The notes beneath the pieces were generated by a model. It was not told the origin of the DNA. It ran no database searches and saw only the letters and a list, made by a program, of their open reading frames with translations. A stretch of 64,000 nt of DNA from TPA_inf: Saccharomyces (Eukaryota). This document shows positions 12,116 through 22,427 of the stretch, one piece after another. Position 1 is the stretch's first letter. Each line of letters begins with the position of its first letter. Where the stretch lies: positions 352,001 to 416,000 of the forward strand of contig BK006945.2 of NCBI GenBank assembly GCA_000146045.2, read 5' to 3'. The position numbers and the translations under genes are program-made.

Positions 12116-13330
12116 ATGGGAAGTTTGTTGAGACCGGTTGATCTGGTAAATCAACCGCTTGGATTCCAAGAAAGATATAAAATTTTGCAGAAATTATTCA
12201 AGCAGCTACAAAAGGCATATGCACACACAAAAGGAACTAATATTGACCTTGAAAGACTTGCCACTCGCTTAGAAGTCCATGTTGCTAAAAACAGCTTGTC
12301 TGGTCAGAGTTACAAGTTTAACATGAGCATTTTACTGCGGGATGTGCTTAAATATAAAGGAGATCTCTCGAAGATCAAAATTAATGGGCGCCCCCTTAAA
12401 GGAGCTAAGCCTCATTTATCCTCAATTGGTAATGCAAACTCTATCACTACAAAATCAAAAGCGATGGAAGCTTTAAAGGCTCTGATTTTGGATTCGAAGG
12501 TCTTAGAGAAAAATGGGTATATTGTTAAGGAAATGCAAAATAAAACTAATGATGACAATAGTACGCAACTGTATGCACCTTGTTTGCGTTGCAGCTCAAA
12601 TTTCAAAAAAACAGACATCATGGAAAAGACTCTATGTAGGTATCACCCTTTGAAAAGAATATACAACAGAGATACCAAGAACCATCAGTATCCATGCTGT
12701 GGTGAAACTACTGATTCCGTTTCTTTTCTAAGGCTAGGATGCAAGACGTTTTTTCACCATGTGTTTAGAGGAGAATCATATGACGAGTTATGCAAAATTT
12801 CGAAGTTTTCTAGTACAGATGACATTGATGGTGTTGAGAATGTTCTTTCTCTTGACTGTGAAATGGCTTTTACATCATTGGGCTATGAGATGATACGTTT
12901 AACAATTGTGGATTTTTTCACCGGCAAGACACTATTTGATCATGTAATTCAGCCAATAGGGGATATTGTCGATCTGAATTCAGACTTCAGTGGTGTCCAT
13001 GAGATTGACCGAACCAATTGCCCGACGTACAAGGAGGCACTTGATGTTTTTTTATCCGAAAACTTAATAAATAAAAATAGTATTCTTATAGGGCACGGAC
13101 TAGAGAACGATCTGAACGTCATGAGGCTATTTCATAATAAGGTTATAGATACTGCAATACTTTATTCAAGAACAAAGTTTAAGGTTTCTTTGAAGAACTT
13201 AGCGTTTGAAGTTTTGAGTAGAAAAATCCAAAATGGCGAGCATGATAGTTCTCAAGATGCAATAGCAACGATGGACGTTGTTAAAGTCAAAATAGGTATT
13301 TCTCCAAGTCAAAACAAGTGGGAAAAATAA
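12116..13330 (+). CDS. REX3: RNA exonuclease 3, DEDDh 3'-5' exonuclease (YLR107W), 404 aa
   Basis: ATG verified at 12116. The length of 404 aa and the exonuclease motifs (DCEM..., HGLENDLNV, H-x4-D region) fit REX3. It sits between MDN1 and SNR6 as in chrXII. Confidence 0.88.
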   Translation: MGSLLRPVDLVNQPLGFQERYKILQKLFKQLQKAYAHTKGTNIDLERLATRLEVHVAKNSLSGQSYKFNMSILLRDVLKYKGDLSKIKINGRPLKGAKPHLSSIGNANSITTKSKAMEALKALILDSKVLEKNGYIVKEMQNKTNDDNSTQLYAPCLRCSSNFKKTDIMEKTLCRYHPLKRIYNRDTKNHQYPCCGETTDSVSFLRLGCKTFFHHVFRGESYDELCKISKFSSTDDIDGVENVLSLDCEMAFTSLGYEMIRLTIVDFFTGKTLFDHVIQPIGDIVDLNSDFSGVHEIDRTNCPTYKEALDVFLSENLINKNSILIGHGLENDLNVMRLFHNKVIDTAILYSRTKFKVSLKNLAFEVLSRKIQNGEHDSSQDAIATMDVVKVKIGISPSQNKWEK

Positions 13331-14204
13331 TGTGATCATATTCAAAGTTGAGCAGACATATATAGTTATTACATTTCATACGGTTCACATGAGTTTTATT
13401 AAGTAATTACGTTAAGAAACAACATGATAAAAGTAATGATTTCGTATTGCTTTCCTATTTTCTGTATTTAAGCGAACAATAATAATGCACCTTTTCAATA
13501 TCTGAATATTAAAATATCGTGAAATTGGGTTCAGGATGTACCAAACTTGATGATAGCTGAAGCACCATAATCCTATTTAAAGAAGTACCTGTTATCCGTC
13601 AGTAATTACCAGAACAAGTTAATTTTAAGTTTAATCTAAAAAAGTATTGCATGCGGCATTAAAAGACAACATAAAACATCTAAACGGTAAAGTATGATCG
13701 ATAATTCTCCATAATAGTTCTGTTATTTATAATCTCCAGCACTAATAAATGCTATACGTATATTTGTACACAATATAATTTCAGAATTTATATTGCTACC
13801 ATGACTGTCTGAGAATTGGGGGAATAACTTGATAATTGTTGGGATTCCATTGTTCGTAAACGCAATAATATTAGGTATATAGAAGATACTAAATGTTCTC
13901 TCCGAGGATATAGGAATGCTCACAATGGAATCGATATATTTCTACATAATAGTATTGAGATTATTCCTCTTTTAGTTTTATATAATTCATTATCCTATTA
14001 CATTATCAATCCTTGCATTTCAGCTTCCATTAGACTTAATGACTGTTTCTCAATTTTTATGTCATCTTCCTGGACCTCATGTGATACTATACCAGTAGCA
14101 TGAATACTACTGAATCGATGATACTTTAGAGTTTCATTGCAACAGTTTCAACACAGCCTGGCATGAACAGTGGTAAAAGTATTTCGTCCACTATTTTCGG
14201 CTAC

Positions 14205-14212
14205 TATAAATA
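14205..14212 (+). promoter_or_regulatory. TATA box of SNR6 (TATAAATA) about 30 bp upstream of U6 +1
   Basis: The sequence tataaata lies 23 bp before the U6 5' end at 14235, matching the known upstream TATA of yeast SNR6. Confidence 0.7.
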
Positions 14213-14234
14213 AATGTTTTTTTCGCAACTATGT

Positions 14235-14346
14235 GTTCGCGAAGTAACCCTTCGTGGACATTTGGTCAATTTGAAACAATACAGAGATGATCAGCAGTTC
14301 CCCTGCATAAGGATGAACCGTTTTACAAAGAGATTTATTTCGTTTT
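14235..14346 (+). ncRNA. SNR6: U6 spliceosomal snRNA gene (112 nt, Pol III)
   Basis: The sequence reads GTTCGCGAAGTAACCCTTCGTGGACATTTGGTCAATTTGAAACAATACAGAGATGATCAGCAGTTCCCCTGCATAAGGATGAACCGTTTTACAAAGAGATTTATTTCGTTTT. This matches yeast U6, including the invariant ACAGAGA and AGC-triad region, and is followed by a T10 tract. Confidence 0.95.
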
Positions 14347-14352
14347 TTTTTT
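14343..14352 (+). terminator. Pol III terminator T-tract (T10) for SNR6
   Basis: Ten consecutive T residues end the U6 sequence. Confidence 0.85.
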
Positions 14353-14466
14353 ATCATCGAGTGAAGTATCGTGACTTGTACATTTGAAGATACCCAGCGT
14401 ACAGCAGTGTATCTTTATCTTCCTGTATGATATAGATAACTAACATCTCGAATAGAAAATTGTCTC

Positions 14467-14477
14467 GCGTTCGAACC
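14467..14477 (+). promoter_or_regulatory. Downstream extragenic B-box-like element of SNR6 (GCGTTCGAACC), TFIIIC site
   Basis: GTTCGAACC lies at +233..+243 relative to U6 +1. That is the known unusual position of the SNR6 B block, about 120 bp after the terminator. Confidence 0.7.
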
Positions 14478-14666
14478 TAAGCCTTTGCTATCGGTTGAAC
14501 ATAGAAGACCGCGTGATTCATTTTAGTGCGTAAGAATGCTATTAGTACTTATGTGCTTTATGAATGTGAATATTGTTACAGCTATGCAATGGTACGATCA
14601 TACTCTGAACGATCCATTTAAATTATATATGTCAAACAGAAGAGAAAGGTTTTTTTATTGAAGATT

Positions 14667-16124
14667 TCACAGAAAATCAATCATTTTGCAATATTCCTTC
14701 GTCCCAGAGAAGGTTTCGGCTTTTACAGCAACGAGAATGATTCTTCCATTATTTGTACCTAGCTTCCACATGGATTTCGATAAGTGTAGTTTCAAACCAT
14801 GAACGCAATTCAAAACTTTCAAATTGGTGCAATCCAAGACCCTCCCTTTACATTTGGAGTCGTTAACTAATGAGAAAATATTACAGCATTTTGCGCCATT
14901 TACCGTCAAGTCACAAATGGAGACACATGCAGGAATAATTAAGTGGGATTCAACTTGCATTTGACTGTCACGAAGTTTGACCTTATATTCGGACAGATCA
15001 ATTTTAAAATCTGGGTTTTCCAATAAAACATCCGAGAACTTGTTTTCAAACAACACTGCAGCCTCTCTGGATAGGTCTACATGAACAGTCTTATTCTTTT
15101 TGTTGAATATTATTTTGCACTGGTTAGAGTGTAATTGGAAAATAAGATCGTGCGAAACTGTATCGATATAAGGCCTTTGGTATTTTAACATGCTCCAGTG
15201 TCTTTCAATACAATGTTTTACCTTTTTTGTTGGAGGTTCATATTCATCATTGTTGCCTGAATCAGTCTCGGTTTTATGAAATCCAGTAGCGGCTTTTTCA
15301 CCCTCAGTTCCATTGAGACAACTGCTTACCGCTAAAGATTGGTTTCCGGTATGAAGTGATGTTAACCTTTCAATGGTTACACCCTTCTTGGAGACGCTAT
15401 CAAGAGCTATGCAAACTTCTTGACAATTAGTTAAGGGATTATATATAATTTTTGCCCGCACTAATTCCTGCTCCAACCTGTTGAGACGGTAATAACGACA
15501 CTCTTTTATCAGAGATGCGGTTCTTTCCTCAGACAGTTCTAATTTGGAACCGCCCAGTAAAGATAATATATCTCGGAAAAATTCTGGGGACCTTGCAATA
15601 TATGAGGGTGGTAATAAAGGTGGAAAGCCCGGCTTCTTATTTGACTCCCACTTCTCAATTTCCTCATAAGATATGCGAGAAATCGTTTCAAAATAGTTCA
15701 ACCGGTTCCCTTCTTCATGGAATAATGATTTTGGTACCTTAAAGGGAACACCTCCAATATTAGTGAAGTGGTAGTCGTATTCTTTTATGAGTTTAACTAA
15801 CTTGGGTAACTGAAAATATAATGCGTCCGCGAAAAGACAGGTAAATTGTACTTCGTTCTTAATATCGGGAAAATAACCTTGTAAATGTCTGTATATTATG
15901 ATGAACACGTCTTCCGATCTATCAACAAATAGAATCGTATTTTTATCGTGCGTATTGAAGAATTGGGTGAAAAAATTGGGCGCATCCGAATTCAATGTAG
16001 CACCTGAGATCTCAAATAGCTTTTGGCCAATCCTAATCTTGAAAACTTCATGGTTTGGTAAAAGCTCGGGGGTAGTTTCTAACTCTTTTGTATAAACCAC
16101 GATCTCGCCCTTTTGGCCAGACAT
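14667..16124 (-). CDS. Uncharacterised protein YLR108C, 485 aa, with N-terminal BTB/POZ (KCTD T1-like) domain
   Basis: ATG verified (reverse complement of 16122-16124). The N-terminus (FKIRIGQKLFEISGATL...ILFVDRSEDVFIIIYRHLQGYFP...LFADALYFQLPKL) follows the T1/BTB tetramerisation-domain pattern. The length matches YLR108C. Confidence 0.8.
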   Translation of the reverse strand: MSGQKGEIVVYTKELETTPELLPNHEVFKIRIGQKLFEISGATLNSDAPNFFTQFFNTHDKNTILFVDRSEDVFIIIYRHLQGYFPDIKNEVQFTCLFADALYFQLPKLVKLIKEYDYHFTNIGGVPFKVPKSLFHEEGNRLNYFETISRISYEEIEKWESNKKPGFPPLLPPSYIARSPEFFRDILSLLGGSKLELSEERTASLIKECRYYRLNRLEQELVRAKIIYNPLTNCQEVCIALDSVSKKGVTIERLTSLHTGNQSLAVSSCLNGTEGEKAATGFHKTETDSGNNDEYEPPTKKVKHCIERHWSMLKYQRPYIDTVSHDLIFQLHSNQCKIIFNKKNKTVHVDLSREAAVLFENKFSDVLLENPDFKIDLSEYKVKLRDSQMQVESHLIIPACVSICDLTVNGAKCCNIFSLVNDSKCKGRVLDCTNLKVLNCVHGLKLHLSKSMWKLGTNNGRIILVAVKAETFSGTKEYCKMIDFL

Positions 16125-17311: not shown

Positions 17312-17696
17312 ATGCTATGTAATAGACAATAAAACCATGTTTATATAAAAAAAATTCAAAATAGAAAACGATTCTGTACAAGGAGTATTTTTTTTTTGTT
17401 CTAGTGTGTTTATATTATCCTTGGCTAAGAGGCACTGCGTATACTTCAAGGTACCCCTGTGTTTTGAAAAAAAACAACAGTAAAATAGGAACTCCGCGAG
17501 GTTCAGGAACCTGAAACAAAATCAATAAAAACATTATATGCGTTTCGAACAAAATTAAAGAAAAAGAATAAATATAGATTAAAAAAAAAAAGAAGAAATT
17601 AAAAGAATTTCTACTAAATCCCAATTGTTATATATTTGTTAAATGCCAAAAAAGTTTATAAAAAATTTAGAATGTATAAATAATAATAAACTAAGT

Positions 17697-18098
17697 TTAC
17701 AACAACAAAGCAGCGGCACCAGCCAACAAAGCACCAGCAGCTGGCAAAGCCTTAGCAGCAGCACCAGTGTAAGAGGTGACAGAGTGAGTTGGAGCAGCAG
17801 AGGTGGTGTTCTTTGGAGCTTCAGTAGAGGTAACTGGAGCAGCAGTAGAAGTACCGTTCTTTGGGGCTTCAGTGGTCAATGGGCACCAGGTGGTGTATTG
17901 AGTGATAACGTCATCGACGGTGACGGTAGCGGTGGAAACCAAAGCTGGGGAGACAGTTTCAGAACAGACGTGGTCTTCACAAGAAGTGATGGTGACCAAA
18001 GTGGTAGATTCTTGGCTGACAGTAGCAGTGGTAACGTTAGCAGCGGCAGAAGCGACAGCGGCGACAGCGGCGATAGAAGCGACAGTAGAAAATTGCAT
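17697..18098 (-). CDS. CCW12: GPI-anchored cell-wall mannoprotein (YLR110C), 133 aa
   Basis: ATG verified. It has a signal peptide (MQFSTVASIAAVAAVASA), Ser/Thr/Ala-rich repeats (TTEAPKNGTSTAAPVTSTEAPKNTTSAAP) and a C-terminal hydrophobic GPI signal. The plus-strand ORFs 17643-18104 and 17902-18135 are antisense shadows. Confidence 0.92.
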   Translation of the reverse strand: MQFSTVASIAAVAAVASAAANVTTATVSQESTTLVTITSCEDHVCSETVSPALVSTATVTVDDVITQYTTWCPLTTEAPKNGTSTAAPVTSTEAPKNTTSAAPTHSVTSYTGAAAKALPAAGALLAGAAALLL

Positions 18099-18390
18099 TA
18101 TTGATATAGTGTTTAAGCGAATGACAGAAGATTAATTTCTTGGTATGTTAGGAAAGAATAAAGGAGAATAAGAATAATTAGAACAATGTAGGATGGAAAG
18201 AAAGATTATCAAGCATGCCGACTTTATATACTTGAACGGAGGCAAAGGATGCAAAATTTTCTCACATTTCTTTCTGCCGTTATGTTGGAAGTAAGACTCC
18301 CATTATCGCAATACTGCAACACGAATATGCAAAATTTGCTGAGTTATCGCAGATAGTTGTTGCAAAGATAGCGGCGTAGGTGGCCGCGAA

Positions 18391-20927: not shown

Positions 20928-21998
20928 ACGTGTTTTTTTAATGTCCCTAACCACTCATTCTTACTTCTTTTTGATGTTTCTTTTTTTTATGGTACTCATA
21001 AAAGTATTTACGTATATAGTTGTATAGAGGAAACAAAAAAAAAAAGATAAAACTCAATTACAAAGTAAAGTGGACGTATTTCGATCATGATTTTTTTCTG
21101 TTTTAACCGCATTGGATTTTCTTGTAAAACTGGAAGAAAAAGGAAACTAAAAAGTCAAGAAAGACCTTTTTAAGACTCCAAGAACCGTCACTTATGGCGT
21201 ATTGTTTGTTTATCAGCACTTCTATCTTCGATAAAGGTTTGTCTGTCTTATATTGTTTACATTTCAAGTCTAATTCTGTGCTTTTACCGAAGAGGAATTT
21301 TCATAAATACGGAGAAAATATAAAAAAAAAGTAAATACAGAAAATAGAACAGTTGAAGCAGAAAAAGAGAACTTGCTAAATAGCTGTCTCACCCAGACAA
21401 GCGTATACTTACCACATTTAGTCTTTTGCAATCTCATTCTTGTTGAAGATAACTATTACATTCACGGACTGTGGCAGAAACTTCTCCTTAAGAAATTAGG
21501 AACTCATAAAAGGAATCAGCAGCTCTATGTAATATCAAAATCTTTTCTATTTTTTGTATTTATGCTCTCATTCATTAATTCTAACGGAGCTATTTATTAT
21601 AAACAGTGAAGATATAAACCATATGTCTAATAGAACAAATTTCAAAAAGTCTTCAATTTCGTGGATGTGGGAATGCATTTATTAAAAATAATGAATGGCA
21701 ACATACGACACCAAAATAGGAACACTTTCAGTACTATACAGAACTACGGATCTTAGTTTATTGAGTTTTGAGAAATAGGTTGATATGGAGACAATTTCTT
21801 AGCGTTATTAGAGGTTATAAGTATACAGAATAACCTACGAGTAGTCCTCAAGAAGATAAGACTCTGCAAAAGGTATCAATAATTTTACTTAATCATAGCA
21901 CTATTTCTTCTTTCGCTTTGTACAGCAGCTCATATATTCCATTACATTATCAATTCTTACATCGTAGCATAAAACACTAAGATTCAAAAATAGAAAAC

Positions 21999-22354: not shown

Positions 22355-22427
22355 TTCCTCGTGGCCCAATGGTCACGGCGTCTGGCTACGAACCAGAAGA
22401 TTCCAGGTTCAAGTCCTGGCGGGGAAG
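22355..22427 (+). tRNA. tRNA-Arg, anticodon ACG, 73 nt
   Basis: The sequence is TTCCTCGTGGCCCAATGGTCACGGCGTCTGGCTACGAACCAGAAGATTCCAGGTTCAAGTCCTGGCGGGGAAG. It has a 7-bp acceptor stem, an A box TGGCCCAATGG, a B box GGTTCAAGTCC and an anticodon loop CT-ACG-AA. Confidence 0.93.

Follow-up and report, generated by a model that had tools for sequence, protein, structure and literature searches.

The U6 snRNA gene SNR6 of Saccharomyces cerevisiae and its extragenic B block in a 64,000-nucleotide stretch of DNA

Which gene lies in the DNA between the open reading frames of REX3 and YLR108C, and does the B-box-like motif downstream of it belong to that gene's promoter? The question arises from an original prediction, made from the letters of a 64,000-nucleotide stretch of Saccharomyces DNA (the whole stretch analysed, referred to below as the window), which placed here a U6 snRNA gene with an upstream TATA box, a T10 terminator and a B box beyond the terminator. 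The analysis leaves next to no doubt that the locus is SNR6, the single-copy U6 spliceosomal snRNA gene of S. cerevisiae, located on chromosome XII and transcribed by Pol III from a hybrid promoter. SNR6 and its extragenic B block are already known, from 1988-1990 onward, and nothing in the gene itself is new. The features of the locus are collected in Table 1, where signed positions are counted from the U6 start.

Table 1. Features of the SNR6 locus and its surroundings, in window coordinates
Feature	Position	Strand	Basis
REX3 open reading frame	12116-13330	+	identical to S288C Rex3, NP_013208.1
Diverged full-length solo Ty1 delta LTR	13810-14144	-	75.5% identity over consensus 1-332, E 2.5e-57
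TATA box TATAAATA (-30 to -23)	14205-14212	+	position; conserved; published -30 (PMC2667510)
T7 element, seven-T run between TATA box and start (-18 to -12)	14217-14223	+	position
U6 snRNA coding region, 112 nt (SNR6)	14235-14346	+	Rfam RF00026, oligonucleotide tiling, conservation
5' stem-loop (nt 1-25, loop UAACC)	14235-14259	+	predicted in MFE and centroid structures
Intragenic A block TGGACATTTGG (+21 to +31)	14255-14265	+	published box A +21 (PMC2667510)
ACAGAGA box (nt 47-53)	14281-14287	+	position; aligned to invariant ACAGAGA of Rfam consensus
AGC catalytic triad (nt 59-61)	14293-14295	+	position and Rfam; inside U4 stem I / U2 helix I strand
Internal stem-loop (nt 63-84), GCAUA pentaloop; C67, A79, U80 unpaired	14297-14318	+	predicted fold
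T10 Pol III terminator (+109 to +118)	14343-14352	+	position; T8-T10 in 6/6 species
Candidate pseudo-A box TGTACATTTGA (+143)	14377-14387	+	9/11 positions as in the real A block
Extragenic B block GCGTTCGAACC (+233 to +243)	14467-14477	+	position; conserved; published box B +233 (PMC2667510)
B-block core GTTCGAACC (G53-C61 equivalent)	14469-14477	+	position; invariant
Invariant block GAATATTGTTA (+334 to +344)	14568-14578		invariant in 6/6 Saccharomyces species; single occurrence in the window
YLR108C open reading frame	14667-16124	-	identical to YLR108C, NP_013209.1
Ser/Gly-rich open reading frame, probably spurious antisense	17643-18104	+
Open reading frame with Flocculin_t3 repeat	17697-18098	-	position looks like that of CCW12
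Delta-like fragment	21479-21527		78% over 50 nt, E 1e-4
tRNA-Arg(ACG) gene	22355-22427	+	Rfam 60.8 bits, ARAGORN

Identity of the locus and of its RNA

The position of the gene follows from its neighbours. The flanking open reading frames are identical to the S288C proteins of REX3 and YLR108C, and the locus is therefore SNR6 on chromosome XII, placed between these two genes as had been predicted. YLR108C, followed by AHP1 as the next open reading frame, is convergent with SNR6, and the 3' intergenic DNA is common to both. Only one U6 locus is present in S. cerevisiae (PMC5855946).

The Rfam covariance model for U6 (RF00026), which begins at yeast nucleotide 10, matches positions 14244-14347 of the plus strand over its full extent (model positions 1-105), with 79.2 bits and an E-value of 1.8e-18. 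The search of 14235-14346 with this model had been put forward as a check of the U6 assignment, and it is passed, the gathering score being 44. The coding region was also compared with four published S. cerevisiae U6 oligonucleotides in an exact-match test. These are the Northern probe for nt 1-69 (PMC3445587), a labelled RNA of nt 49-88 (PMC3177201), a mutagenic primer for nt 77-99 (PMC6824469, where segments at positions 96-107 are named too) and the U6D primer for nt 92-112 (PMC2715229). Each of them is an exact match to the U6 sequence of the window. In combination they cover 112/112 positions with no mismatch, which bears out the claim of an exact, 112-nt match to yeast U6.

The sequence motifs and folds expected of a U6 RNA are present as well. 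The ACAGAGA box, which pairs with the 5' splice site, and the AGC triad had both been named as features to look for; they lie at nt 47-53 and nt 59-61 and are invariant in 6/6 Saccharomyces species. Across the coding region, 108/112 alignment columns are invariant in the six species. In the predicted 5' stem-loop, S. kudriavzevii carries two substitutions, U3>C (facing G23) and A8>G (facing U18), and a standard pair is kept at both. These are the only 5'-stem substitutions among the six species, too few for statistical covariation.

When nt 62-85 are folded in isolation, the internal stem-loop with its GCAUA loop is obtained. The bases of this stem-loop double as U4/U6 stem II (nt 64-80), and its pairing with U4, like that of other U6 segments with U4 and U2, was assessed using published fragments of the partner RNAs (PMC3177201). 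The duplex of U6 nt 64-80 with U4 nt 1-17 has an energy of -24.3 kcal/mol, compared with a mean of -10.2 and a best value of -17.6 for 300 shuffles. The U4 stem I strand is complementary to U6 nt 55-63, and U2 nt 2-12 is complementary to U6 nt 92-102 (helix II). The complementarities for U4 stem I, U4 stem II and U2 helix II are all at canonical positions. The 112-nt RNA carries the elements from which the catalytic core of the spliceosome is formed (internal stem-loop, ACAGAGA box and AGC triad), and it pairs with U4 through stems I and II and with U2 through helix II. The expression of U6 and its assembly into the U4/U6.U5 tri-snRNP and spliceosomes are known from the literature (PMC5855946, PMC9670810).

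Promoter elements and conservation of the B block

The published positions of the SNR6 promoter elements are -30 for the TATA box, +21 for box A, +109 for the terminator and +233 for box B (PMC2667510), and the motif coordinates computed here are the same. The locus is identical to S. cerevisiae SNR6 in the 112-nt RNA, the TATA box at -30, the A block at +21, the T10 run at +109, the B block at +233 and the REX3 and YLR108C neighbours, and no difference was found. All features listed in the original prediction are correct and lie where it had placed them, but it missed the pseudo-A box and T7 element as well as the intragenic A block.

The TATA box is the binding site of TBP/TFIIIB. Its predicted sequence and position at -30 agree with the published position, and it is found exactly at -30 in 6/6 Saccharomyces species, with 4/8 columns invariant. 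At the position of the T7 element, runs of T5-T9 are present in 6/6 species; this element is reported to cooperate with Nhp6 (PMC9136082; its function is also described in PMC5855946). Inside the gene, the A block has three mismatches to TRGCNNAGTGG and is a weak match. It is invariant, but it lies inside a conserved RNA, and its invariance is inseparable from constraint on the RNA itself. The T10 run anticipated after U6 is in place, and the RNA takes its 3' U tract from the first four T of this run. [quoted passage not shown] The sequence TGTACATTTGA is the best candidate in the window for a pseudo-A box, a putative assignment based on its resemblance to the A block.

Just past the terminator, at 14353-14361, the genomic sequence is ATCATCGAG, compared with ATCCTCGAG in the U6 plasmids of PMC6824469. 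The single A-to-C difference in ATCCTCGAG creates an XhoI site. Consequently, it is taken as an engineered cloning marker and not as a strain polymorphism.

The B block is the binding site of the tauB module of TFIIIC. In SNR6 it begins 114 nt past the last T of the terminator, so that the earlier estimate of about 120 bp was a fair one. It is essential in vivo as a TFIIIC site (PMC5855946), and a 2-bp deletion in box B abolishes TFIIIC binding (PMC2667510). The layout had been described as unusual for a Pol III promoter. This description is correct, but the split arrangement is a classic feature and no discovery; the account in PMC5855946 credits it to Brow and Guthrie 1990.

The B-box sequence taken by itself is uninformative. 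With one mismatch allowed, the consensus GGTTCGANNCC has 6 matches in the window, while 6.7 are expected by chance. The consensus scan for the TFIIIC B block finds the site, but the consensus is not enriched over chance. On the plus strand, the 11-mer has two mismatches to GGTTCGANNCC in S. cerevisiae and one in S. kudriavzevii, S. uvarum and S. eubayanus. The core GTTCGAAC is a palindrome, for which reason the consensus scan even reported the minus strand for this site. As the motif occurs at chance frequency, the B-box sequence alone is no evidence, and its significance comes from conservation and published experiments.

Conservation was assessed by comparing S. cerevisiae with S. paradoxus, S. 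mikatae, S. kudriavzevii (two strains), S. uvarum and S. eubayanus, whose loci were found via AHP1 orthologues. A syntenic U6 gene is present in 5/5 of the other Saccharomyces species, with scores of 79.2-79.5 bits. The six-species alignment spans -150 to +440 relative to the U6 start. Mean pairwise identity is 32% in the upstream region from -150 to -31 (excluding the TATA box and the T7 element) and 46% in the spacer between the terminator and the B box. In the B-box 11-mer, 9/11 columns are invariant. Variation is seen at 14475 and 14476 only, which coincide with the two N positions of GGTTCGANNCC. The run of eight invariant columns in the B box has a p-value of 0.00045 in a column shuffle of the downstream region. 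The B box is located at +231 to +234 in 6/6 species, its distance to the U6 start varying within 3 nt. The TATA box and the B box are thus fixed in position, whereas the distance from REX3 to U6 ranges from 641 to 1195 nt across the loci. Three of the species, S. kudriavzevii, S. uvarum and S. eubayanus, have GCGTTCGAGCC as the motif, and in them the palindrome is broken (GTTCGAGCC). Since the palindrome is broken in these three species, only the gene-strand reading fits the consensus, and the orientation of the B box is settled.

A wider comparison was made by scanning metagenomes with a yeast-type U6 core, which returned two S. cerevisiae contigs and three other U6 genes (L009, L010 and L012). 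All three are true U6 genes according to Rfam, with 54.8-81.1 bits. In the yeast locus L010, a same-strand core GTTCGATTC is located 110 nt after the terminator, and in L012, from Hanseniaspora osmophila/vineae, a same-strand B core is located 131 nt after it. The terminators of these two loci are T10-T11 runs. The chance of such a B core occurring anywhere in 400 nt is 0.016-0.031 per locus. Among other budding-yeast U6 genes, L010 and L012 thus resemble SNR6 in having a downstream same-strand B core, whereas the H. uvarum gene (L009) does not, as no B core was found on either strand within 400 nt downstream. The layout is consequently widespread, but not universal among budding yeasts.

Several further observations concern these loci. 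In the H. uvarum U6 gene (L009 4600-4921, 54.8 bits), the 5' half is diverged and very AT-rich and has a different 5' hairpin, and the terminator is a T13 run. No TATA box was found at -30, an A-box-like TAGTTCAATGG is located about 40 nt upstream of the modelled RNA, and a neighbouring open reading frame begins only about 130 nt past the terminator. Judging from its sequence, the promoter of this gene appears to be organized differently from that of SNR6. In L010 (1-1203, 1339-1455), only about 136 nt separate U6 from the end of a REX3 orthologue (53% identity), and this interval contains no LTR. The B core of L010 lies inside a T-arm-like hairpin, GAG-TTCGATT-CTC, flanked by CCCGAG...CTCGGG.

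These comparisons make it possible to weigh other readings of the downstream motif. The first is that GCGTTCGAACC is a chance match, or an element serving something else such as the 3' end of YLR108C, and is not an SNR6 element that binds TFIIIC. The chance frequency of the one-mismatch consensus in the window and the location of the motif in convergent 3' intergenic DNA, about 190 nt beyond the YLR108C stop codon, agree with this reading. However, conservation mirrors the B-box consensus, with an invariant core and variation in the N positions only, and in the six species the distance from the B box to the U6 start varies by no more than 3 nt, in contrast to other distances, which drift. The same-strand core at a similar distance in L010 and in the Hanseniaspora locus L012 also argues against it, as does the published mutagenesis, in which the element binds TFIIIC and is essential (PMC5855946, PMC2667510). 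A fortuitous match or an element of another gene is, in view of this, extremely improbable.

According to the second reading, it is by coincidence that U6 has the B box beside it, which would be either what remains of the T-arm of a decayed tRNA gene or a free-standing extra-TFIIIC (ETC) site. It draws on the fact that the core equals the tRNA T-loop consensus, and on the T-arm-like hairpin around the L010 motif. Yet no tRNA was detected near the B box by ARAGORN, a search of 13331-14700 with Rfam at a permissive threshold (E up to 1) gave U6 only, and no tRNA gene was found in the L009, L010 and L012 loci. Across species the B box keeps its distance from U6 and its orientation, which speaks for a functional link, and U6 transcription depends on the B block (PMC5855946, PMC9670810). 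A relic or a coincidental ETC site has the same minute probability as a chance match. A tRNA origin of the B block in deep evolutionary time is conceivable and would leave its present function unchanged. The least probable reading of all is a non-functional U6 pseudogene copy: numerous U6 pseudogenes are found in many eukaryotes (PMC5855946), but S. cerevisiae has its single U6 locus (PMC5855946), the sequence is identical to functional U6, and the promoter and terminator elements are intact and syntenically conserved in six species.

Other elements in and around the intergenic DNA

The alignment contains a second conserved block downstream of the gene. The 11-nt sequence GAATATTGTTA is surrounded by DNA that is about 47-54% identical, and no invariant run of that length was obtained in 20,000 column shuffles. 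In S. cerevisiae it is flanked by the B block on one side and by the YLR108C stop codon on the other, about 90 nt past the former and about 88 nt beyond the latter. Over the species, its spacing ranges from 88 to 96 nt relative to the B box and from 82 to 99 nt relative to the YLR108C stop. Since the spacing is loose with respect to both, the block is not assignable to one gene. It could be a 3'-UTR or polyadenylation signal of YLR108C, which is the more mundane reading. An undescribed cis element tied to SNR6 or TFIIIC, such as a boundary or nucleosome-positioning site, is an unlikely explanation.

Read on the minus strand, S. cerevisiae, S. paradoxus and S. kudriavzevii have UGUAACAAUA at this place, a Puf5-like sequence. 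A Puf5-type site was rejected as the cause of the invariance, since the other three species, S. mikatae, S. uvarum and S. eubayanus, have lost the UGUA.

Upstream of U6, the intergenic DNA had been expected to look empty. This is not the case, because a diverged solo Ty1 delta LTR lies within it (Table 1). A Ty1 delta LTR consensus was the query used for its detection, and a copy in S. mikatae with 94% identity to this consensus validates it. The TG...CA termini of the window's element are preserved, and 91 bp separate its end from the U6 start downstream. Its flanking 5-mers, CTGTC and GTTTC, form no recognisable target-site duplication, which fits an old insertion. A BLAST search of the intergenic DNA between REX3 and SNR6 (13331-14234) against the whole window returned the self-match only.

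LTR sequence is also found at the corresponding loci of the other genomes, at L001 2793-3105, L004 3061-3376, L005 2890-2976, L008 2920-3006 and L007 2529-2579. Such sequence is located between REX3 and U6 in every species examined, the only exception being one of the two S. kudriavzevii strains. The strain represented by L004 has one copy and a REX3-to-U6 distance of 1044 nt, compared with no copy and 641 nt in L003. Positions and orientations of the LTRs vary between species. Given this variation and the polymorphic presence in S. kudriavzevii, the region is regarded as a recurrent, still polymorphic Ty landing site. Ty1 is known to target DNA upstream of Pol III genes (PMC5911963), and the recurrent LTRs upstream of SNR6 fit such targeting.

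A further Pol III gene in the window, tRNA-Arg(ACG), has syntenic counterparts in S. paradoxus, S. kudriavzevii, S. uvarum and S. eubayanus. A delta-like fragment is located about 830 bp upstream of it, and this fragment surfaced only with the delta consensus as query. Elsewhere in the window, two open reading frames on opposite strands overlap almost completely. The one on the minus strand contains a Flocculin_t3 repeat and, by its position, looks like the cell-wall protein gene CCW12, while the one on the plus strand is Ser/Gly-rich and probably a spurious antisense frame.

Transcription mechanism and comparison with other Pol III promoters

The mechanism proposed for SNR6 combines two sources. 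The identity of the locus, the motif positions, the RNA complementarities and the cross-species conservation of the elements and their spacing come from the present analysis, while the binding of factors, the requirement for the B block and the part played by the nucleosome are taken from the literature only. As described there, TFIIIC binds the extragenic B block at +233 and contacts the A block at +21, which is intragenic and weak. The DNA between the blocks, roughly 200 bp, is wrapped on a positioned nucleosome, so that A and B are juxtaposed. A nucleosome that brings the A and B boxes together has been described (PMC9136082, PMC13475603), and the A-to-B distance of about 200 bp is considered atypical and functionally important (PMC5855946). 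As summarized in PMC5855946, Kaiser et al. 2004 found that the extended A-to-B spacing matters in vivo. According to these accounts, TFIIIC then places TFIIIB over the TATA box at -30, aided by the T7 element and Nhp6, after which Pol III starts at G+1 and stops in the T10 run.

The promoter of SNR6 shares properties with two other types. Like SNR6, tRNA genes (type 2) have A and B blocks bound by TFIIIC, an oligo-T terminator and the B-block core GTTCGANNC. In tRNA genes, however, both blocks are intragenic and 30-90 bp apart, whereas the B block of SNR6 comes only after the terminator, at a distance of about 210 bp from the A block, and there is a further contribution from an upstream TATA box. 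Human U6 (type 3, with DSE, PSE and TATA, SNAPc and Brf2-TFIIIB) resembles SNR6 in the RNA core (ACAGAGA, AGC and internal stem-loop), in a TATA box near -30 and in the use of Pol III. Its promoter lies wholly upstream and does not need TFIIIC, whereas transcription of the yeast gene in chromatin requires TFIIIC and the downstream B block (PMC5855946).

A type 3 promoter, of the kind found in vertebrate U6 genes, was rejected for this locus. The downstream B block is conserved and fixed in position, and it is reported to be required in vivo (PMC5855946, PMC9670810).

From the aligned sequences, the identity of the B block and its spacing of about 210 bp from the A block are under strong purifying selection across Saccharomyces. 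This is a small confirmation, probably already implicit in published work, for a gene that, together with its extragenic B block, has served since 1990 as a model for how Pol III transcribes genes in chromatin.
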